Translations under genes and position numbers: made by a program
Shown here: piece after piece, positions 2,053 to 63,871 of the stretch
How positions within the stretch are numbered: the first letter of the stretch is position 1
How the letters are laid out: the number at the start of each line of letters is the position of its first letter
Notes under the pieces: model-generated
Seen by the model: only the letters and a program-made list of their open reading frames with translations
Told to the model about the DNA's origin: nothing
Databases searched by the model: none
Source of the DNA: a virus
IMG/VR virus record: IMGVR_UViG_3300037493_002420
Location: 4,461-68,460 of that record
Direction: 5' to 3' (one strand)
Length of the DNA: 64,000 nucleotides

Positions 2053-5000
2053 TAATATGAATTATAATAATTATTTAAGTCTGAAAAATCTTTTTGTGTA
2101 CCACTGATTATATCATCAGCATTACCGTTACTATATCCAATAGTTTTATTAACTATCTTCTCACCTTTATCATCGTAACCTATATGAGTAAAGATAGTTT
2201 TATATTTACTAGAACCATAAAGAGCTTTTTCTATCACTACAGTGCCATTACCGTACATGTCATCATATTGATAACTACCCCTATAATCAATAATTGATTC
2301 TAAAGGACTTAACTGTCCTTTTGTATATAATTGATTAGTCCAATTTGAACCATCTTGAACAATAGATATTCCATTTTGTAACATATTATTATAGTCAGTT
2401 TGTGTAATTATATTATCACCAGCCTTTCCTTCAGCATTATTTTTATCCATATAACTTTTAAGCCAAGCAGCACTTGGATAAACAATCATAGCTCCTTTTT
2501 TTGAATTATTAGCAGCAATACGTTGAGCACCTATACTAAAATTAGGCAAATCACTTTTCATATTTTCACTATCTGTCATTAATGCATTCAAGATAGTTTG
2601 TGATTTACTATTAGTACCTCTAACTATATTATCTCCTGAACCTGAATCAGCTGATTTAGATAAACCTGTTTGATTAGCTCCTGTAAATGAAGTTTGTATT
2701 TTAGATGGATCTCCCCAATCTACTGCATACAAATCTCTTTTAGCTTGTCTCCAATAATCAGCACCTGCTGTACCAACAGCTTTATGATTTACACCAATTA
2801 CATTAACACCTGATGTATATAAACCTGAACCTGCATTACGAGAGACATCAATAGTGCTTAAACTAACCGGTGTTTTAATTCTAGATGATGTCCATGCTTT
2901 ATTAGCAGCATTAGATAACATATCATATTCTTCATCAAAAGTTTTTCTACCTGTACCTGCTACATTTTTTCCAAAAGTACCATGTATTTCTGCTTTACCT
3001 AAAGAGTTAATAATATCTTTTTTACTTGAAGCATTATATTCTTTAAACTTATATTTATTACCTTCTGTTTTCCATAAACCTGTATCAGCACTTACAAGAG
3101 TTCTTACATATGTTTTATTAGGTGATAAATGATATTGTTCTTGCATTTCTTTTGGATAACTAGATCCTTTTTGAAAATCCCAAGAAGGTGCATCTGGATT
3201 TGAAAGAACTCTTAATTTTTCAGCACCTACTTTCTCTACCATAGAATCATAATTTTCATTAGTAACTCTCATTTGTTTACCATTTAAAGTAATATCTGTA
3301 GGTCGTTTAAGAATACTTTCATCAGCACCTTGTTTTTTTCTTAATTCACGGTACTCTACTTTTGATAATTTAGAACCATCTTCTTTATATAAATTTTTTG
3401 CTAAATATTTATATTCTGTTGGTAATATTGTAGATAATTCTTGTTCAACTACACGGACAGCTTCTTTTTCCCAATGTTTTACTGATTCTTGATATTTTCC
3501 AAATTCATTTAATTTTTCTCCATAACCTTCCCAAGATTCCATATCTTTATTAACAGTTTCTATTCTAGCATTACTACTCATATGTTTATTAAATCTTGCA
3601 GTAATAGCTGCTAAACTTTTACCACCTACTTGATTATTTAAAAAGTAATTAGGGCTGTTTCTTAAATGTCCTTGAAATTCTTTTCTGGTCATACCTTTAA
3701 GATTTTTATTTGCACCAGATCCATATATATGATTAGCTTCAGCTTCAGTCATCCACCCTTCAGATACATATTTATCTACAAGCTCATTCATTTTGTTAAT
3801 AGCTTCTACAGCATATTCATTTGTTTTAGCTTTAACAATTTGTTGATTTAAAACTTTTACTTGTGCTTTACCTGTTACATCACCTGAATGATCAGCTCTT
3901 ACGTGAACCCCTTGTAGTTCATCAAGTAAAATAGGTCTACCATATGTAGGACTATTTGGATCTTCATCTCTATGATAAGCTCCTGTAGCCATTTTTTCAG
4001 CATCAATAGCTTTTTCTCTTTCACCTATATTACGAATTTTAGCAGCATTTTCTATACCTCTATTTCTTAAAGAAGCAACTTGCATATCATATTGATGTTT
4101 TTGATCAAGTACAGCATAAGGATTAGCTTCTATATCTTCTTTAGCGTTTCTATAAGCAAATACGTGAGCAGCTTGATCTAAATCTTTTTCCATTAGAGAT
4201 GATGCAATAGCATTATCTATTTTATATCTCATAGATTTAAGATCACCGTAAGGATTAGAATTTCCAGTAGTTGTTGTAGCAGTACTTGATTTACCATCAT
4301 TCATGATATCAATATCCTTTTGTACTCTATTTAATACAGATTCATTAATACCTTTATTTTCTTTTAAACTATTTAATGTTTGTACTAATCTTGGATCTTT
4401 ATTCCCATTAGCTATTTGACTTTCAATATCTTTAATTTTATTAGTATATACTTTAGATGATTCTTGTAATTGAGTATGTCTAGCTACTTGTTCAGTTTTT
4501 AATCTATTAAAATGAGTTTCTAAATAATTTTTTTCAGCAGCATTTTTATCTCCATTAAATTGCGCAGCATTACTGTAAGAAAAGTTTTTTCTATTTACAT
4601 AAGCTTGAGTCTTATACATTTCCATAATAGCTGGATCTGATCCCAAACTCATTTCAAATAATTTACTTAAAGGTTCTTCTAATTGTTGACCATTTTTAGT
4701 TTTAACAATCCATTTACCATCAGAACTAAAATCTACAGACTCAATTGATAAATCTGAATCTTTAGCAAGTTTTAAAGCTTTTTCTTGTACATTAACATAA
4801 TTAGTATAAGAAGGACTTGATATACCTAACGTATCTTGTATAGCAGATTCTTTAAATTCTTCTCTTTGATAATCCAACGCTAAAACACCATCTTCCCAAT
4901 ATTGACCACGTATTTTATCATCTAAAGAATTTTTTAATCCTTGAGCTCTTCCTTTTTGATTATTAAAATTTTTAGTCCAAGCCATATCTTTCATAAGATA

Positions 5001-54287: not shown

Positions 54288-54297
54288 TTCTCTCTTT
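54276..54297 (+). terminator. Intrinsic terminator
   Basis: AAAGAGAG-TTAATT-CTCTCTTT. Confidence 0.7.
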
Positions 54298-54323
54298 ATT
54301 CTCTTCATCTTTATACTATTCTT

Positions 54324-54421
54324 GATATAACAAGGAATGTTTTCAGGGGGGAGTAGGGCTAGCCGTAGCTACTACTTAATATACCTACGAGAGGAATCCT
54401 ATGGAAAACACTTGTTATATC
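54324..54421 (+). ncRNA. Candidate structured small RNA
   Basis: GATATAACAAG..TGTTTTC pairs with GAAAACA-CTTGTTATATC; starts right after a promoter motif; no ORF in the cassette. Confidence 0.55.
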
Positions 54422-54550
54422 TTATTATTATAATGCAATGGTTGAACAAATGATACTATCATTGTAATAATAATTATGGAAAAGTCAGAGGCCTTTCCCT
54501 TATTGCTTTGGGAATGTAAGTACCGTAAAAGGTCTTAGCAAGACACAATT

Positions 54551-54577
54551 AGAGAGAACTATATGTTCTCTCTTTTT
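54551..54577 (+). terminator. Intrinsic terminator
   Basis: AGAGAGAAC-TATAT-GTTCTCTCT plus U-tract. Confidence 0.75.
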
Positions 54578-54620
54578 CCTATTCATCTTATAACTATTGT
54601 TAAATATAAAATCAAATATT

Positions 54621-54806
54621 ATGGATGTAAAAACTATAAATAAGATTATTAAAATGCTTGATGAAAAAACTAATACCATTAAACTTAATCAACCTGTACC
54701 AATCATTAAAGATTGGCATAATGGATTAGTACATGGCTTAGAAGAATTCAGAGAGCATTTACGTAAACTTACAGTAATTCATACTGATTTACAAAAAGAG
54801 GAGTAA
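54621..54806 (+). CDS. Small early hypothetical protein
   Basis: MDVKTINK.. between a promoter motif and the terminator at 54794-54815. Confidence 0.6.
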   Translation: MDVKTINKIIKMLDEKTNTIKLNQPVPIIKDWHNGLVHGLEEFREHLRKLTVIHTDLQKEE

Positions 54807-54865
54807 TCCTCTTTTCTTTTTTTCATCTTTATACTAATATAAATATAAATTTAAAACTTAAAATT

Positions 54866-55237
54866 ATGAAAGTTATAACTTACAAAAAGAAAATTGAAGT
54901 AGAAGCTACTGTACCTTTTCCTGTTATCACATTTGTTCCTGGAAAAGTAAGAAAGTTTGAAGATGGTTACTCATGGGATGCTATGGGTTATGTAGCTAGA
55001 TTTGATGGACTTACTAATGATGGATATCATAAAGTAACAGGTATGTATTATACAAGCATAGATAAAATGCTTGAAGCATATGTCATGGAAAACTTTAATA
55101 AACGTACAGGTTATGGTTCAGTAGATTGGCATGTGTATTCAGGTAAAGATGTTAACCTACCTGAATTATCTGAATTAGAAGATACAAATGGTAATGATGA
55201 CCACGCTGATTTAGTTAATATGTTCAAAAACTTATAA
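54866..55237 (+). CDS. Early hypothetical protein
   Basis: 123-aa cassette gene; terminator at 55236-55257. Confidence 0.7.
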   Translation: MKVITYKKKIEVEATVPFPVITFVPGKVRKFEDGYSWDAMGYVARFDGLTNDGYHKVTGMYYTSIDKMLEAYVMENFNKRTGYGSVDWHVYSGKDVNLPELSELEDTNGNDDHADLVNMFKNL

Positions 55238-55292
55238 GGGAGAGCAATCTCCCTTTTGGGTTTCTTTTCTTTTCATCTTTATACTAGTATTG

Positions 55293-55432
55293 AGAATAGT
55301 TTCAGCAGGGGTAATCTCTGAACGGGTAAGTTTTTTAAAAGTTTCCTTGATAATATAAAAGGAAAGTATTTAATTACACACAGGCTGAAAGTGTATGTCA
55401 AGTTGCCTTAATTCCGGTACTGAAACTATTCT
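55293..55432 (+). ncRNA. Candidate structured small RNA
   Basis: Perfect 13-bp closing stem AGAATAGTTTCAG/CTGAAACTATTCT followed by a U-tract; fills a whole promoter cassette. Confidence 0.6.
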
Positions 55433-55486
55433 TTTTTCTTTTTTCATCTTTTCACCATTATTAGTATTTACTCTAAAATTAAACAT

Positions 55487-55873
55487 ATGAAAAAGTTAAC
55501 AGCGTACAAGACAGCAAAAAAAGAATTTGATGTAGTTTCAGAAGAAGTAATTTCTTTAGAAAATCAACTTGATGATACTAAAAGGATTGAAGTATCTTCC
55601 TCATTAAGTATTGATAGAAACTCAAGTGAATCACAATTCATTTATGCTATTGGTATTATCAATCAACAAATTGCTACTTGCAAAGAACTTGATATTGATA
55701 CTACACCAAGAGAAGAAATGAAGAAAGCTTGTATTCAGATTAGAAATCTTGTGAAAGAACACAGAGCTTGGGATGATTATGAAAATGAACTATGTACTTA
55801 TGTTAATCAAGTATATAAACTACTCACAGAAGAAGAGAAGTTTAGTTTGTTAGATTATCCAAAGAAGAAGTAA
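55487..55873 (+). CDS. Early hypothetical helical protein
   Basis: 128-aa cassette gene; terminator at 55881-55902. Confidence 0.7.
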   Translation: MKKLTAYKTAKKEFDVVSEEVISLENQLDDTKRIEVSSSLSIDRNSSESQFIYAIGIINQQIATCKELDIDTTPREEMKKACIQIRNLVKEHRAWDDYENELCTYVNQVYKLLTEEEKFSLLDYPKKK

Positions 55874-55960
55874 TTAATAAGGAGAGTGTAAAAACTCTCT
55901 TTGTTTTCTTTTTTTTTTCATCTTTTGACTATTCTTGATATTAACTCTAAATTTAAAAAG

Positions 55961-56179
55961 ATGAACAAAATTAAAATCAACACCGCAAGATTGAGAAGAG
56001 AAGTTAAAGCTGAAATTAATTCAGCAAGAATTATCTCTGAAGAGAAGTCACCTATGTCATCATTTGACAGAAAGACTTTAACAATGCTTAAAGCAGAAGT
56101 ATCTGATATAGATAGAGTAGCTTTAAGTAAGTTAATCTCAAACCGTTCAGGTTATAGAGTCTTGAGCACAAGGGATTAA
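55961..56179 (+). CDS. Early hypothetical protein (likely start MNKIKI)
   Basis: Start placed downstream of the promoter motif; terminator at 56188-56212. Confidence 0.6.
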   Translation: MNKIKINTARLRREVKAEINSARIISEEKSPMSSFDRKTLTMLKAEVSDIDRVALSKLISNRSGYRVLSTRD

Positions 56180-56267
56180 CACAATACAGAGAGGGCTTTA
56201 AGCTCTCTCTTTATTTTTTTCTTTCATCTTTATACTGTTATAAATATTCACTCTTAAATTAAATATT

Positions 56268-56483
56268 ATGTATACACAACAAAATATCAATAATCAAAGA
56301 TTTAGCATACGGTTCTGTAATGTTGCTAAATATTTAGGATTTAAAAAGGTAGGACCATTTGAAAAACTATTAAGACAAATGCACCCTAATAATAAAATTA
56401 GTTTTGGACCATCACATATGCGTGTTGGTAGATTGCTAAAGGAAATTACTGATTATTATAAATATGAAACTAGGGATAAATAA
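56268..56483 (+). CDS. Early hypothetical protein
   Basis: 71-aa cassette gene. Confidence 0.6.
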   Translation: MYTQQNINNQRFSIRFCNVAKYLGFKKVGPFEKLLRQMHPNNKISFGPSHMRVGRLLKEITDYYKYETRDK

Positions 56484-56528
56484 TCCCTTTTTTTATTTCA
56501 TCTTATAACTAATACTAAATATAAAACT

Positions 56529-56714
56529 ATGGTAGTAGAAACAGTAACACTAGAATTAGAGTGGACAGAGTATAAGTTATTAATGTCCTTGTTGAAAGAA
56601 ACTAAAGATTGGGCTAATATACTTGACAGTGAAAGATTATCAACAAAAATGTACAATGAGATATATGATAAACTATATACTCAACGTACTATAAAGAAAT
56701 GCATTAGCACATAA
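56529..56714 (+). CDS. Early hypothetical protein
   Basis: 61-aa cassette gene; terminator at 56697-56732. Confidence 0.6.
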   Translation: MVVETVTLELEWTEYKLLMSLLKETKDWANILDSERLSTKMYNEIYDKLYTQRTIKKCIST

Positions 56715-56826
56715 GCTAATGTATTTTTTTTTGACGTGCACTCCCTGACGTACACATCCTTGGCCTTCGGCAACTTTTTTTTTCATCTTTTTACTACTAT
56801 TGATTTTATTTATTAATTAAAACTAT

Positions 56827-57156
56827 ATGATTATGGCAAATGTATTCAGTGAAACAAAAACACTACAGTCTTTCGGAACTTCACGTCAATTGACAGGTGT
56901 GAAATTAATTCAAAACCCAAAAGAGGGAGGGAAGTTATTTGGAGAATTCAGTAACGGGGAAACTGCACGTCTTGCAAAAGACGTAACAGACCTTAAAGGG
57001 GATTTATCAGTATCGTGGTTCACACCTGAATCAGGGGACGCTAGTTGGATGATACACCGTACAGGTGCAAGTGCAAATGTTGTAGCCGAGATGTCTTTCG
57101 GTGCACCAAGTGCAGTTGCTACACCTGTAGCGTCAGCTGACTTAAAAGTCGGATAA
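56827..57156 (+). CDS. Early hypothetical beta-rich protein
   Basis: 109 aa; followed by the strong terminator at 57161-57201. Confidence 0.75.
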   Translation: MIMANVFSETKTLQSFGTSRQLTGVKLIQNPKEGGKLFGEFSNGETARLAKDVTDLKGDLSVSWFTPESGDASWMIHRTGASANVVAEMSFGAPSAVATPVASADLKVG

Positions 57157-57160
57157 TATT

Positions 57161-57201
57161 ATACACCTACATAGAGATATGTAGGTGTATTTTATTTTTT
57201 T
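57161..57201 (+). terminator. Strong intrinsic terminator
   Basis: 13-bp stem ATACACCTACATA-GAGA-TATGTAGGTGTAT plus U-tract. Confidence 0.8.
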
Positions 57202-57728
57202 CATATGTGCTTTATGTTGGCTTTCAGCAACTTGTTTTTTTCATCTTTATACTTATATAGATATTATTATTGAGCTTCATAGTTTATAATGGTACTTAAC
57301 AGATATATACTACAGAGCAGGTCAGCTATTGACTACGGAACGGTGTAGATATAATATAGATGAGTAAGCTACATTAGATGAAGAGTAATAGTTTGAGTGT
57401 AGATAAAGTTGTCTCCACCCTGTGTAGCTTTGTGCCTTTTAAAAGTTAAGTGCTTGATTATTAAGTAATTAATTTTTGATGGATTAAGTGATGAGAGGGT
57501 CTGATTGAGGGACTGAAATACTTTATCCTCTTCAATACCCTTCAACATACTTGGTAAATACCTCTCAAAGTAGGTACAGTACATAGTATATAGCTATTAG
57601 CCCTTGTACATTAGACCCTTTTACTTATAGTAATTGTTTAAGTACTCTTATATCTATTACTATTACTATATACTAGAGTATCACAGTAAACACATCCGGA
57701 ATTCATTTAACCCACTAAAATATTATAT

Positions 57729-58603: not shown

Positions 58604-58869
58604 TAATGCACCACAACTCACGTGGATATAAAGACTTCTTGTGATCAGCATAGCTGGAAAGACAGTGAGTGAAAACTCCTACAAGATGTGAAACCACAAT
58701 GATTAACCAATACCTGCAATAATATTCCTTTGAATGCAGGGTAAGGACATATAAGAGGTAACTGTCTTCTTTTAGTTAATCATTCTCCCAAGGGTGAGCA
58801 GTTGTAACATTAGTGATTGGCTCTAGGGGACACCTAACCATAGTTTTTATTACAACTGAGTGCAGAGGG
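58604..58869 (+). ncRNA. Twister ribozyme variant with 163-nt insertion in L4
   Basis: UAA-UGCA-CC..CUCAC-[insert]-CUCCCAAGG-GUGAG-[P5]-AG-UGCA-GAGGG. Confidence 0.7.
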
Positions 58870-59233
58870 GTTATTAATTATTTAAAGTCTTTAATATCAA
58901 GTATAAAATGAGGCAAAATCCGCTAACCTCTTAGAGTATAGTCAGACTGCAGATAACTGCTATATGCTCACGTTCGATAAAATCTGCTGAAGTGAAGGTG
59001 TCAGCATACTTGATATTAATAACATTAATCAATACACTACTAGCTAGGGTGCTTACAGGGGGTTCCCTGATAGAATGTAGAATATAACAGAAGATGTAGG
59101 TTCTACTATTGATTTAATAAGTGTGGGTTGTTACACTATAATAAAACAACTATCCAGTAAGCTGCTGGCGTGGGACTGTCCAGTATAGATACAAGACAGT
59201 AGGCTTTGGTCAATATGCCTTAATGACCATAAA

Positions 59234-59526
59234 TAATGCACCATTCTCACGTGGATATAAAGACTTCTTGTTAACAATAGGGTAGGATAAAACCGTAAAG
59301 TCCCTGTTTTGGTCAAGATGTGAAACCACAATGATTAATAATATCCTCTTATCTAAGAAGGACAGAGAACTATGTTATGTGAGCATGGAACTACTACAAT
59401 TAAGTAGTAAGTTGAAATACATCTATTAATCATTCTCCCAAGGGTGAGCAGTTGTAATAGATATTAGCAGGTAAAGGGTTCAGCTGACTACTCCTGAATA
59501 TATTTATTACAGCTGAGTGCAGAGGG
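59234..59526 (+). ncRNA. Twister ribozyme variant with 184-nt insertion in L4
   Basis: Same scaffold as 58604-58869 with unrelated loop contents. Confidence 0.7.
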
Positions 59527-59628
59527 GTTACTAATTAACATCACAGTCCAATTGCCGTTAGGGTCTAACAAGGGAGACTGGCTGTCCTTGCTGTGATGTT
59601 TATTTTATTAATCTTAACACTTACTAAT

Positions 59629-59703
59629 ATGATATATTTAATTTTAATGGTGATTGTATTTATTATAGGAATAAGTTACTTAACCTACCAACTATTTAAA
59701 TAA
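59629..59703 (+). CDS. 24-aa hydrophobic micropeptide (not in the ORF track)
   Basis: MIYLILMVIVFIIGISYLTYQLFK; AT-rich leader. Confidence 0.45.
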   Translation: MIYLILMVIVFIIGISYLTYQLFK

Positions 59704-59706
59704 TAT

Positions 59707-59973
59707 TAACCTATCATCCTGTGTGTATGAAGACTTCTTATCTTTAAAAGAAACACCTGAAATGGGAGATAAGATGTAAAACCACAATGATTAAGTTTGA
59801 AAATAATACTACAGATTATGCATGTAGTTCTTAATCATTTTCCCAAGAACAGGCAGTTGTAATAAAAGACCAACCAGTAAAGAGTCTGACCTTAAGTGTC
59901 ACCTTTATTTGAACTTGAAATATACTAAGAAGAAAAGGTCTGGGTAATTGATATTACAACTGAATAGGGAGGG
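59707..59973 (+). ncRNA. Twister ribozyme variant with 117-nt insertion in L4 (covarying copy)
   Basis: UAA-CCUA-UC..CCUGU-[insert]-UUCCCAAGA-ACAGG-[P5]-AA-UAGG-GAGGG; P2, P4 and T2 all show compensatory changes. Confidence 0.72.
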
Positions 59974-60012
59974 GTAAAAATAAAACATTACTAACTTAAA
60001 ACTATACTTAAA

Positions 60013-61137
60013 ATGGAAATTAAAACTATAATTAGAGGAGAACAAGAATTGTTCAAAATGGAAGAAGCTAAAGCTTTGCCTTTACCTTTACAGAGATACA
60101 AGTTTTATAAAGGAGACCTGTATCCGTTTAATGTTATCAACAAGAAAGAAACTGATACAAATATTTATTGGTCTCTTACTATAAAAACACCAAGATTTGA
60201 AAACAATAGATTATTTTATCTATCTAAAAATAAATCAGGTGTCACTTTTGATAAAGCTAAAAAGACTATTAAGATTTGGTTTGGCCACAATATCACTACA
60301 TTAGAACATGATATTATGCCAGATATTATTAAAACTTTTCAATTAGATTGGTTCAGTAATATGTCAAATTCATTAAAGACACTCTTAAATAATACAATGC
60401 TTCAAAATTGTATTAAAGGTAAGATTACTAATCCTAGAGATTATGTTAAAGCTTATCTTAAGACTAGTCCTTATAAGAATTTAGATATATCCGTTGAATT
60501 ATTTTATAAGACTTTTAGTGATACCCGTATAGGTTCACCAAAATCTTACAAAAAGACAATTCTTTATAGTGTTAATCCTAATGAAAGTTTAGAGTACATA
60601 GGAAGAACTTTTAATCAGAGTAGTATTAATTCAACTATTTATGACTTATTTAATCAAGCTGAATTACTTGATAGAAAAGTAAATATCAAATGGTCAGAAT
60701 CTAGAATGAAGGAAATACATAAAGAATGGACTAGAGAATTAATGAGTATTGCTATTAATTCAATTGAACCTGTTGAATATAATTATCCGGAACTTGAAAC
60801 ACCTGAAGGTATTAGCTTAATTACAAATAATATTGAATTATTTGAAGAAGGTACAATAATGGACCATTGTGTTTATACTAATTATGAATATAAAGTAAGA
60901 TCTAAAAATTATTTTGTATTTAGGTATAATAGGAATGATGTTAGAGCTACAGTTGGTGTAACACAAGCCGTAGATAAAATAGAAATAAATCAGATGTATT
61001 CTATTAGAAATACTCCAGTTGACCAAGAACATAAAGATTATGTTTCAACATGGTTAAATTCTGAGTATACTAGAAATTGGTTTACAGCTGATAATGAAAA
61101 AGTAGTTTTAATTGACACTAATACTGATTGGTTATGA
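60013..61137 (+). CDS. PcfJ-like domain protein
   Basis: C-terminal ELFEEGTIMDHCVYT.Y..RATV..QMY..RN motif. Confidence 0.7.
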   Translation: MEIKTIIRGEQELFKMEEAKALPLPLQRYKFYKGDLYPFNVINKKETDTNIYWSLTIKTPRFENNRLFYLSKNKSGVTFDKAKKTIKIWFGHNITTLEHDIMPDIIKTFQLDWFSNMSNSLKTLLNNTMLQNCIKGKITNPRDYVKAYLKTSPYKNLDISVELFYKTFSDTRIGSPKSYKKTILYSVNPNESLEYIGRTFNQSSINSTIYDLFNQAELLDRKVNIKWSESRMKEIHKEWTRELMSIAINSIEPVEYNYPELETPEGISLITNNIELFEEGTIMDHCVYTNYEYKVRSKNYFVFRYNRNDVRATVGVTQAVDKIEINQMYSIRNTPVDQEHKDYVSTWLNSEYTRNWFTADNEKVVLIDTNTDWL

Positions 61138-61534: not shown

Positions 61535-61963
61535 ATGAAGAATATGTTAGGAAGAGCTATTGAAATAGCAGTAACTGCACATGCAGGACAAGTAGACAAA
61601 GGTGGTAGACCTTATATATTGCACCCTTTATGGGTAATGGATAAAGTAAGACATTTAGGAGATGATTATATGATTGTAGCAATACTTCATGATGTAGTTG
61701 AAGATTCTAGTTGGACTATTGAAGAATTAATAAGATTCGGATTTAATCAAGATACAATGTACGCATTATCTCTTTTAACTCATGTAAAAGGAGTTAGTTA
61801 TGATGATTATATCAAAGCAATATCAACAGATCCAATTGCTAAAGCAGTTAAGTTACGTGATTTAGAACACAATACTAAAGTTACAAGACTTAAAGGATTA
61901 AGAAAGAAAGACTTTGATAGACTTGAAAAGTATCATAGAGCATATACTTACTTATTAGATTAA
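61535..61963 (+). CDS. HD-domain (p)ppGpp hydrolase-like protein (SpoT/Mesh1-type)
   Basis: AH.GQ.DKGG.PYI.HP..AILHDVVED..VKL.D..HN. Confidence 0.85.
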   Translation: MKNMLGRAIEIAVTAHAGQVDKGGRPYILHPLWVMDKVRHLGDDYMIVAILHDVVEDSSWTIEELIRFGFNQDTMYALSLLTHVKGVSYDDYIKAISTDPIAKAVKLRDLEHNTKVTRLKGLRKKDFDRLEKYHRAYTYLLD

Positions 61964-61987
61964 TATTAACTATTAACACATTTAGTC

Positions 61988-62113
61988 ATGGAAGTAATAG
62001 AAATCACAATGCAAGAAATTTGGCAGGCAACAAGACCTGTAATTCAGAAAAACAAAAAGAAATATACACGTAAAACTAAACATTTAAAAACTTTAAAACT
62101 ATGGGAAATATGA
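61988..62113 (+). CDS. 41-aa basic peptide with an ArfA-like motif (not in the ORF track)
   Basis: MEVIEITMQEIWQATRPVIQKNKKKYTRKTKHLKTLKLWEI. Confidence 0.5.
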   Translation: MEVIEITMQEIWQATRPVIQKNKKKYTRKTKHLKTLKLWEI

Positions 62114-63021
62114 GAAATTTATCAGTAAAAGGCTTGTCAATGTCACAAGCACAGTCTATTAGTAATTTATGCAACCAGCGTGCACAGAATATTACTGATC
62201 AGTTAGAAATAATCAACAATGCTAGTAAGACAATTACTATTGACAGCGTTGATTATATGCAGCAGGAAGGAATTAGTATGCCTATTAATGTCATTGACAT
62301 GATATTAGAGAAAGGTAGACTACATGCTACTCAAGCTTTCTTAATGGAAGCAACGAGAAGCAAGTCTTCTGAGCTTGATAGACTGAATAGTTTGAGATAT
62401 AACTATGATGTTGCGGCACCTGAACGTAAGTTTGCTGTAGTTCCTACATTAGCAGAGTCTGTTGATGAAGATTGGGGATGGTCACAACTTACTGACGCTG
62501 AAATGGCTGAATACTTAAGTGAAGAGGCTTACGCTTCTCACATTGGGCAATTCATTCATAAGCGTGGTAAGTTAAGTAAACTACGTGAAGAACTTGTAGG
62601 CTTACCTAGTCTTGAATGGATGACAGTGAAAGATGGAGAAAAGACACCTGTAAAGGTTATTAAACATCATAAATCAGTTGATTTAAATGCTTTGCATGAA
62701 AAATTAGCTGGTTTACACCGTCTTCATGAGCAACGGGTAAATTACTTCAAAGCTAAGGTTAAAAACTTAGTTACTTTGGAGAATGCCTCACGTCATACAG
62801 GTAACGCAAAGCTTATTACTGAGCATAAAGCTGAACAAGATGAGTTTGACTCTCAATATTCTATTGCCTATAGTGCATGGAATACTAAGAGATCAGCTGA
62901 ATCTAGTAAGTTTGAAGCTGAACGTGAAAATCTTATTAAGGAAGTAGCAGGTTTACGTATCAACGTAAATCCTAAATTCCAGGATGTGATTGACATGTTT
63001 ATCACTGCCTCCGAGGATTAA
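62101..63021 (+). CDS. Hypothetical coiled-coil protein, 306 aa
   Basis: Long amphipathic helices; immediately followed by structured non-coding sequence. Confidence 0.75.
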   Translation: MGNMRNLSVKGLSMSQAQSISNLCNQRAQNITDQLEIINNASKTITIDSVDYMQQEGISMPINVIDMILEKGRLHATQAFLMEATRSKSSELDRLNSLRYNYDVAAPERKFAVVPTLAESVDEDWGWSQLTDAEMAEYLSEEAYASHIGQFIHKRGKLSKLREELVGLPSLEWMTVKDGEKTPVKVIKHHKSVDLNALHEKLAGLHRLHEQRVNYFKAKVKNLVTLENASRHTGNAKLITEHKAEQDEFDSQYSIAYSAWNTKRSAESSKFEAERENLIKEVAGLRINVNPKFQDVIDMFITASED

Positions 63022-63072
63022 TAATCTTGGTTGGATAAGAGGGAAGGTACAAACCTGAACTCTTATCCTTTA

Positions 63073-63334
63073 TATTACTAATAGGAACCTTTATGACTCA
63101 GCGCATAGCGCACTTATACTGGTATGTATATTAACTATAAAGAAAGCCATTGGCTACAAACCGCTTCTCTTCACTTTACAAAACTGAGATAGAACTCAAT
63201 CATTAGACAGGTTACTCTATGGAGATAACTGGCTAATACAAGAGGTCTTAGTTTTTGTTCTTGCCTTTGTAGAAGAGAAGGTCTTTGTCATTGCTTTTGC
63301 TTTTAGCATAGTCTATATATTCCTATTAGTAATA
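63073..63334 (+). ncRNA. Candidate 262-nt structured RNA with GYYTTT-like hexamer tracts
   Basis: Perfect 15-bp closing stem TATTACTAATAGGAA/TTCCTATTAGTAATA; nested stems CTTCTCTTC/GAAGAGAAG and AAAACTGAGA/TCTTAGTTTT. Confidence 0.65.
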
Positions 63335-63355
63335 CCCATTTTTTAAATATTAATT

Positions 63356-63607
63356 ATGTCACAATATCATTATAACTATTATCCAAGCTTAACTTTTAGA
63401 GGCCTTTCTGAAGCTTCACTGGAGTGGCTTAAAGAAAAAGAAGAAGCGGATAAGAATATCATTAATAATTCTCAATTCAAATTGAGAGAAATCAGAAATC
63501 ATTTTATTACAAGGAGAAATACACAACCTCCTGCTCAAATAAGTATAAAACAATTTGGTATGGGTGTAGATCCGTATAAATTAAAAAATAGACACTATAA
63601 AAAATAA
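63356..63607 (+). CDS. Hypothetical protein
   Basis: 83-aa ORF with AT-rich leader. Confidence 0.55.
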   Translation: MSQYHYNYYPSLTFRGLSEASLEWLKEKEEADKNIINNSQFKLREIRNHFITRRNTQPPAQISIKQFGMGVDPYKLKNRHYKK

Positions 63608-63613
63608 AAAGTT

Positions 63614-63871
63614 ATGGAAGAATTATTATTTACAATTGCAAAACATATGCCTATAGAGGTATTACTATCTTCTCTTAAGAAAGCTATTATTAAACATGAA
63701 GATACACCTACAGAAGATACATTAGATGAAGTTAGTAAGTTTACTATATTATATGTCACTAAAATGAAAATAGGTGAGAATTCTGTAGAAGATACAGTAC
63801 AATCATTTAAGGCTATGGATGAGGCTATGGAGATAGGTAAAAGAATTACCGGCCAAGATAAAACCTCTTAA
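63614..63871 (+). CDS. Hypothetical protein
   Basis: 85-aa ORF. Confidence 0.6.
   Translation: MEELLFTIAKHMPIEVLLSSLKKAIIKHEDTPTEDTLDEVSKFTILYVTKMKIGENSVEDTVQSFKAMDEAMEIGKRITGQDKTS

Follow-up and report, generated by a model that had tools for sequence, protein, structure and literature searches.

A structured RNA family with G-phased hexamer tracts adjoins a conserved protein gene in uncultured crAss-like and related large phages

Orphan pairs of an RNA and a protein have been a source of new biochemistry in the past. In Bacillus, the small beta-rich protein TRAP forms an 11-mer ring, each subunit of which takes one (G/U)AG repeat of the trp leader RNA, and these short, G-containing repeats are phased with a period of approximately 5-6 nucleotides (nt) in single-stranded RNA. 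The host-encoded and abundant sponge RNAs CsrB and RsmZ present many copies of the short motif GGA in hairpin loops and are not known to be tied to a particular protein gene in their neighbourhood. The pRNA of phage phi29 (approximately 170 nt), which is contained in Rfam, binds the portal and works only within a protein complex, while ToxI-like RNAs of type III toxin-antitoxin systems consist of approximately 36-nt tandem repeats upstream of the toxin gene. According to the abstract of the respective study, CspB of Bacillus subtilis prefers 5'-GTCTTTG/T-3', a site that was defined on DNA oligonucleotides (PMC1904285). GOLLD and ROOL are described as large ornate RNAs that often occur in phages and form RNA-only assemblies (PMC12286853), and Fremin et al. 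(2023; PMC10690425) report 8495 unnamed candidate structured RNAs of DNA viruses from IMG/VR with lengths of 29-151 nt. Here, we analysed a stretch of 64,000 nt of viral DNA (IMG/VR record IMGVR_UViG_3300037493_002420, positions 4,461 to 68,460; hereafter the window), in which the gene for a protein of 306 amino acids (aa) (62101-63021, plus strand, stop codon TAA at 63019-63021) is followed by a spacer of 334 nt. The spacer holds a member of an uncatalogued family of structured RNAs of approximately 290-300 nt, which occurs in crAss-like and related large phages that have not been cultured. An earlier note on this DNA had described the locus as a coiled-coil protein gene followed by a rod-like RNA with hexamer tracts, i.e. 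as a candidate ribonucleoprotein, and had proposed that each periodic motif could bind one subunit of the upstream protein.

Neither the protein nor the RNA belongs to any of the families searched (Rfam, tRNA search, Pfam, PHROGs, PDB, Foldseek). Rfam 15, which covers 6S RNA, tmRNA, RNase P, group I/II introns, pRNA, GOLLD, ROOL, HEARO and riboswitches, gave no match anywhere in the window when gathering scores were applied and none between 62900 and 63450 even at E<=10, and ARAGORN found no tRNA or tmRNA gene in the window. The element resembles the pRNA of phi29 as a phage-encoded structured RNA, but for the latter neither hexamer tracts nor a fixed upstream partner gene are known. A type III toxin-antitoxin RNA was rejected because the repeats here are 6 nt long and lie 3' of the gene, although no PADLOC search was made. 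With GOLLD and ROOL, the element has in common that it is an orphan, highly structured and phage-linked RNA without a known function; in contrast to these much larger RNAs, which are in Rfam, it comprises only approximately 300 nt, has no Rfam match and accompanies a single protein family. The candidates of Fremin et al. share the data source and the covariation evidence in intergenic regions of viral contigs, and they may include unnamed fragments of the element; the outline and section 2.1 of PMC10690425 mention neither the element nor the gene link, the candidate lists being placed in the supplements. A text search of the published literature, using 12- and 14-mers of the core or crAss-like together with structured or noncoding RNA, returned no description of the element.

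The association of gene and RNA was found from both sides. In the first relative (L002), the protein is 54% identical, and the spacer after its gene equals that of the window in length and has long blocks in common with it; the arms of the closing stem have a wholly different sequence and nevertheless remain complementary. Scanning IMG/VR with the core 15-mer ACTGAGATAGAACTC returned at least 120 loci. A core profile recognized the element in 87 of the 120 listed, the other 33 being chance matches without core or gene, and in 86 of these 87 a homologue of the 306-aa gene lies upstream on the same strand; the remaining locus is cut approximately 230 nt upstream of the RNA. The reverse test used the protein only: from 295 pattern matches, 222 encoded relatives, of which the best 80 were fetched, and the core was present downstream on the same strand in 76 of these best 80, whereas in the other four the contig ends at most 232 nt after the gene. 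Hence, the conservation of the downstream RNA among homologues, on which the earlier note had made its proposal depend, is given. Gene families in the neighbourhood vary from locus to locus and are all unannotated (ten of them gave no Pfam or PHROG annotation, save one sub-threshold DALR_1 row), which identifies the gene and the RNA as the conserved unit. The families of the directly following open reading frame (ORF) vary as well; since even the commonest was found in only 17 of 81 loci, a cis-regulatory leader or riboswitch of a downstream gene was rejected.

The pair was found in samples from sediment, lake, freshwater and estuary, and neither the element at the DNA level nor the protein in a tblastn search gave a match among GenBank phages. 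When one genome per prokaryotic species was scanned, the only match was a 3684-bp contig (JBAXBM010000227.1; L203) from the bin of a metagenome-assembled genome of Candidatus Omnitrophota, which carries the full element (117 bits) and probably derives from a phage whose sequence ended up in this bin. This single match implies an element of phages, as opposed to one of hosts or common prophages.

Directly behind the stop codon, as already seen in the earlier note, lies hairpin H1 (63033-63068), a 9-bp stem formed by GGATAAGAG (63033-63041) and CTCTTATCC (63060-63068) with a conserved internal loop, an inner GC/GC stem and an ACAA cap; the consensus of this loop region in the family is GATAAGCACAAGCTGAT. 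A K-turn reading of the internal loop was discarded by eye for want of a matching G.A pattern. The main domain of 262 nt, likewise correctly noticed before, is closed by the perfect 15-bp stem P2, the 5' arm of which (TATTACTAATAGGAA, 63073-63087) is the exact complement of the 3' arm at 63320-63334. It continues with a variable 5' arm (63088-63160) containing the hairpins P3 and P4, the latter reading AGCC-ATT-GGCT in the window; in relatives, both vary in sequence and length and often carry UUCG or GNRA loops. The 5' strand of P5 (CCGCTTCTCTTC, 63161-63172), which includes an invariant bulged GC, pairs with GAAGAGAAGG (63272-63281), and this 3' strand separates the two hexamer tracts while staying in register with them. 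The first six nt of the core 15-mer (63183-63197) form helix Pa with CTTAGT (63247-63252), i.e. ACUGAG with CUUAGU including a conserved G.U pair; the exact 15-mer is present in 89 of 99 unique cores, a proportion that partly reflects ascertainment. P6 (63202-63237) consists of TTAGACAG paired with CTGGCTAA, contains a conserved A.G mismatch and encloses the variable apical hairpin P7 (63212-63228). Hexamer tract A (63251-63271) is composed of three GNNYTT units, GTTTTT, GTTCTT and GCCTTT, followed by GTA, and tract B (63281-63312) reads GTCTTT, GTCATT, GCTTTT, GCTTTT, AGCATA and G. A conserved CTATAT then leads into the 3' arm of P2 (together 63313-63334). The order along the RNA is thus H1, P2, P3/P4, P5, Pa, P6, P7, tract A, P5 3' strand, tract B, CUAUAU and P2 3' arm. 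Rod-like is only a loose description, as the multi-branched domain with its variable P3/P4 part and the P5-Pa-P6-P7 core is not a simple rod.

The plus strand between 63015 and 63360 (346 nt) folds with -97.1 kcal/mol compared to -69.0 +/- 5.0 kcal/mol for dinucleotide shuffles (z -5.61), and none of 100 shuffles was as good. RNAalifold applied to a plain MAFFT alignment recovered only 16 pairs, with the 3' strand of P5 being misaligned; because of this misplacement, we adopted a core structure drawn by hand and an alignment based on it (model R1, 141 positions and 30 pairs, to which the 99 unique cores were aligned). As an alignment fitted to R1 leans towards the drawn structure, the values are quoted together with slid and shuffled controls. 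In the core, 91.3% of the cells are paired compared to 81.5% in shuffles, double-change cells amount to 301 compared to 88.5, and the covariation score reaches 0.346 compared to 0.160 in shuffles (0 of 500 reach the observed value) and 0.05-0.14 in slid controls. For H1 and P2, the plain MAFFT alignment revealed two-sided changes in 26 of 27 pairs, with 364 such cells compared to 152 in shuffles and a covariation score of 0.522 compared to 0.281. All nine outer pairs of H1 show two-sided changes among 69 elements, all 14 aligned pairs of P2 covary, and P5 has compensatory changes in 8 of 10 pairs with 97.7% of the cells paired; pairs of P6 covary as well (GC 64/AU 23; UA 65/CG 33; GC 80/AU 11/UA 5). 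Furthermore, the 26 reliable core pairs contain 242 G.U but only 23 A.C combinations, and hairpins with perfect 3-bp closures carry UUCG five times and its complement CGAA never, GNRA 18 times and its complement five times. These biases indicate that the RNA is read from the plus strand, and the orientation of the element always equals that of the gene.

This strand asymmetry, together with single-base insertions in relatives and the single copy per locus, largely excludes three readings. The first, a DNA-level element such as a packaging site or, beside the gene of its initiator, an origin of replication or a primase-loading array, is highly improbable. In its favour, both strands fold equally well (z -6.06 for the minus strand of 63015-63360), the repeats are iteron-like, and GTT, GCT and GTC, with which many hexamers start, are presumably recognition triplets of phage primases. 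However, neither the excess of G.U over A.C nor the occurrence of UUCG and GNRA in one sense only agrees with it, the 6-nt phase is unlike the helical repeat of duplex DNA, and contigs from RNA libraries cover the element. Still less credible is that the tracts encode a small peptide, hydrophobic if read from the plus strand or Lys-rich if read from a 30-aa minus-strand ORF. The tracts are indeed stop-free in several frames, but T/G-rich sequence is stop-poor by composition, single-base insertions in relatives (GAAGAGAAGG compared to GTAGTGGAAGG) break any frame, a conserved start codon is lacking, and the conservation of G1, T5 and T6 with a varying N2 does not represent a codon pattern. The Lys/Thr-rich minus-strand ORF that lies over the hexamer tracts (63217-63309) is read as a by-product of their A-rich complement and not as a gene. 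The least probable of all is a miniature inverted-repeat mobile element that landed here by chance. The perfect 15-nt terminal inverted repeats would be in line with it, but neither the window nor the whole 68-kb record contains a second copy and 165 loci have one each, the arm sequences vary while their pairing is kept, and the position relative to the gene is constant.

The 6-nt periodicity of the tracts, which the earlier note had placed at 63251-63270 and 63281-63304, exceeds that of shuffled sequences. Within 63250-63312 (63 nt), eight G-G pairs are found at lag 6 compared to one to three at lags 1-5 and 7-11, and a count of eight at this lag was reached by only 4 of 20,000 mononucleotide shuffles. 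The sums for 89 related elements are 825 at lag 6 and 667 at lag 12 compared to 129-253 at other lags. The segments TTGCCTTTG in tract A and GGTCTTTG in tract B are nearly invariant in the family, and tract A is also kept in distant relatives. Such relatives were examined at 15 loci (L226-L240) with 22-41% best-segment identity to a distant query: the core model matches right after the gene in 10 of them, a P5-like helix flanked by GNNYTT runs was seen by eye in four (L237, L238, L239, L240), and one (L229) has no DNA past the gene. P5 and the hexamer tracts persist down to 22-29% protein identity, in a diverged version of the element, and the tracts with their phasing are its most deeply conserved and oldest feature. 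Because the downstream RNA is conserved and the tracts survive in distant relatives, the gene-plus-RNA module proposed in the earlier note can be regarded as well supported.

In view of these tracts, one parallel is TRAP with the trp leader, where short phased G-containing repeats with a similar period occur in single-stranded RNA. The units here are GNNYUU instead, and the candidate partner is a 306-aa protein that is modelled as helical and has no fold match. In a 'rule of six' particle, copies of the 306-aa protein would occupy one G-phased hexamer each on both sides of P5 on an abundant 300-nt RNA; we consider such an arrangement unlikely. If true, periodic RNA recognition of the nucleocapsid or TRAP type would have a counterpart in phages, with which environmental crAss-like phages would seize host RNA metabolism or transcription early in infection. 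The many copies of a short motif also recall the abundant CsrB and RsmZ, from which the element differs by its motif, its phage origin with a fixed neighbouring gene and the missing Rfam match. What is expected of a protein sponge, i.e. many short-motif copies in one abundant RNA, is found in so far as there are approximately eight phased units and relatives on RNA-library contigs of high depth. The element could therefore be a decoy that titrates a host protein binding single-stranded RNA, for example a cold-shock protein, with each GNNYUU(G) unit as one site and the neighbouring protein as a separate factor or helper. In line with this, the approximately eight phased units are U-rich, GGTCTTTG is nearly invariant, and cores of relatives stand on deep RNA-library contigs (depth 395-1263), as a titrating RNA predicts. 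Moreover, GGTCTTTG and neighbouring units resemble the CspB site 5'-GTCTTTG/T-3' defined on DNA oligonucleotides (PMC1904285), but this likeness is a lead in sequence only: some units are unlike the heptamer, and the abstract of that study describes no array of sites. A decoy would explain neither why the element is so strictly linked to the 300-aa gene nor why its core is so elaborate, and we assign a low probability to it.

The 306-aa protein itself was modelled with AlphaFold2 (predicted local distance difference test 85.4, predicted template modelling score 0.75) as a helical bundle with two beta-hairpins, built from two helix/beta-hairpin/helix units plus long helices; coiled-coil, as used in the earlier note, is only a loose description. 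Among the residues that do not vary even down to the distant relatives are N22, K88, H153, R162, H206, R207, E210, N214 and K217, and the last five of them lie on one face of the long helix in the model. The family comprises 2386 proteins at E<=1e-3 when counted in the 90% clusters, or 776 clusters at 50% identity; nearly all of the top 150 of the latter have approximately 300 aa, and no fused forms were found among them. Pfam has no family for the protein, PHROGs gave only a weak match to phrog_4079 of unknown function (E 0.0063), and a PDB profile search returned two chance-level rows (E 0.07 and 0.32). Foldseek found nothing in the PDB at E<=0.001; a ClyA-type alpha-helical pore-forming fold occupied the top rows, but was rejected with E-values of 0.017-0.07 and TM-scores of 0.13-0.19. 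The sole return from BFVD is an uncharacterised homologue from an uncultured phage, and a search of the ESM Atlas led to a 'hypothetical' cluster (0.77). A homo-oligomer prediction with three copies scored 0.27 compared to a mark of 0.42, which speaks neither for nor against binding.

Contigs from the RNA libraries of two metatranscriptome runs (X19, X24) include one of 311 nt that covers 63041-63326 and one of 174 nt that covers 63127-63280 without any difference. Others of 217-1282 nt, with depths of 19-1263, match the conserved core and continue into sequence that resembles other members of the family. The X19 and X24 contigs do not cover the ORF at 62101-63011 and reach almost nowhere past 63348, which is not to be taken as evidence of absence. 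One RNA contig has a loose end at 63041 that resembles what we take to be sequencing-adapter letters, and a single contig cannot define the end of an RNA.

Since the RNA always adjoins the 3' side of the gene, the two partners probably work together. We tentatively favour, with somewhat less than even confidence, a new phage small RNA that originates from the 3' end of the gene transcript and acts with the protein, the hexamers being putative repeated binding sites. The RNA would form the 3' end of a transcript that it shares with the gene or a short operon, and H1 and the closing stem P2 may protect it and allow it to persist. The gene product would then bind the RNA, with the G-phased hexamers offering approximately eight repeated sites to several protein copies, and the resulting particle could target the RNA metabolism of host or phage at an early stage of infection. 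A widespread structured RNA outside the catalogued families, with a partner protein whose predicted fold has no solved relative, would represent a testable case of periodic single-stranded RNA recognition. To our knowledge, early genes of uncultured crAss-like phages are almost all unannotated, and the pair provides a handle on the early programme of these phages; the covariance model R1 can moreover be used to annotate the element in viromes.

Several points weigh against this proposal. The contact between protein and RNA that it assumes is suggested by synteny, and the protein has no RNA-binding domain recognisable by Pfam, PDB profile or Foldseek searches. The mean predicted pairing of the hexamer tracts is 0.56-0.58 compared to 0.81 for P5 and 0.94 for P2; being approximately half paired by prediction, the tracts may not be free platforms. 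The two metatranscriptome runs belong to one study, and their contigs show neither ends nor strand nor level, while DNA may occur in RNA libraries. Furthermore, the RNA lies 290-920 nt past the gene in 10 of the 86 RNA-found and 4 of the 76 protein-found loci. In the two gap loci that were opened (L007 and L062), the gap holds two or three small ORFs each, and the RNA is therefore not always the 3' untranslated region of the gene itself. Finally, in a variant class (L123-L126, L197) the 15-mer core is replaced by GGTCTTAGGACATGACATACAGG approximately 140-330 nt after the gene; Pa is kept by a swap of its two strands, wobble included, and P6 via compensatory changes. The protein of the window is closest to those of L123-L126 (60-63% identity), yet its RNA belongs to the common class, so that the central RNA domain does not track the protein clade.

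With regard to the gap loci, the intervening ORFs (L007 3252-3842, L062 7131-7870) encode 66-102 aa, and one family of them (91 and 95 aa, starting with MNEVV) is common to both loci.

A purely cis-acting module at the 3' end, i.e. a barrier to exonucleases, an unusual terminator or an operator for the mRNA of the protein itself, would need no function in trans. The constant position downstream on the same strand agrees with it, as does the long closing stem followed by a T-rich stretch 3' of P2 in many relatives; in the window, a run of six T (63339-63344) starts 4 nt past P2 and may mark the transcript end. Moreover, in a 1282-nt RNA-library contig with the core at 117-156, the core is flanked by approximately 116 nt at one end and by more than 1100 nt at the opposite end. 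However, P2 and the six T are separated by the 4-nt gap, and a terminator scan of 61900-63700 called none on the plus strand, the six-T run included; promoter-like sites, scanned for together with terminators, were not commoner than in shuffles. A barrier needs a stable stem only, yet loops, the G.U pair, the A.G mismatch and the phased hexamers are retained where protein identity is low, and where small genes stand between gene and RNA (L007, L062), the element is not the gene's own 3' untranslated region. A cis role without any function in trans seems doubtful to us.

Regarding the genomic context, the window represents most of a 68,460-bp record, for which CheckV estimates a completeness of 57%, and is AT-rich (approximately 30% G+C). 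A long block on the minus strand encodes the portal (phrog_6547, E 4e-88), the large terminase (TerL; phrog_6681, E 3.5e-58) and virion proteins, and small genes occupy the plus strand from approximately 54 kb onwards. Among GenBank phages, TerL places crAss-like phages of Bacteroides, Flavobacterium and Cellulophaga closest, with an identity of only 21-26%. Judged from the relationship of portal and TerL, which corresponds to that of Crassvirales-like phages, the window is a distant crAss-like phage contig. The gene and the RNA sit within the plus-strand block, 3' of the genes for a PcfJ-like protein (60013-61137; PF14284, E 2.5e-07) and an HD-domain phosphohydrolase (61535-61963; phrog_990, E 1.2e-53), both just upstream of the module.

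Further observations concern the region before these genes. Between 52000 and 54500, both GC skew and gene orientation switch from minus to plus, which marks a divergent junction of the structural block and the small-gene block. A motif of approximately 46 nt with the core TTTTTTTCATCTTTATACTA occurs seven times at 54296-57277, with distances of 300-620 nt, and each copy is placed directly 5' of a small plus-strand ORF; these copies are likely early promoters. Within a stretch without long ORFs (approximately 57.9-60.0 kb), a unit of approximately 200-250 nt is present three times (58682-59975), and the units have the blocks CAAGATGTGAAACCACAATGATTAA, TTAATCATTCTCCCAAGGGTGAGCAGTTGTAA and TTACAACTGAGTGCAGAGGGGT in common. 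Copies 1 and 2 share a two-domain fold with variable inserts (z -0.12 and -2.48), and the units may belong to another structured RNA family or to a repeat-containing origin.

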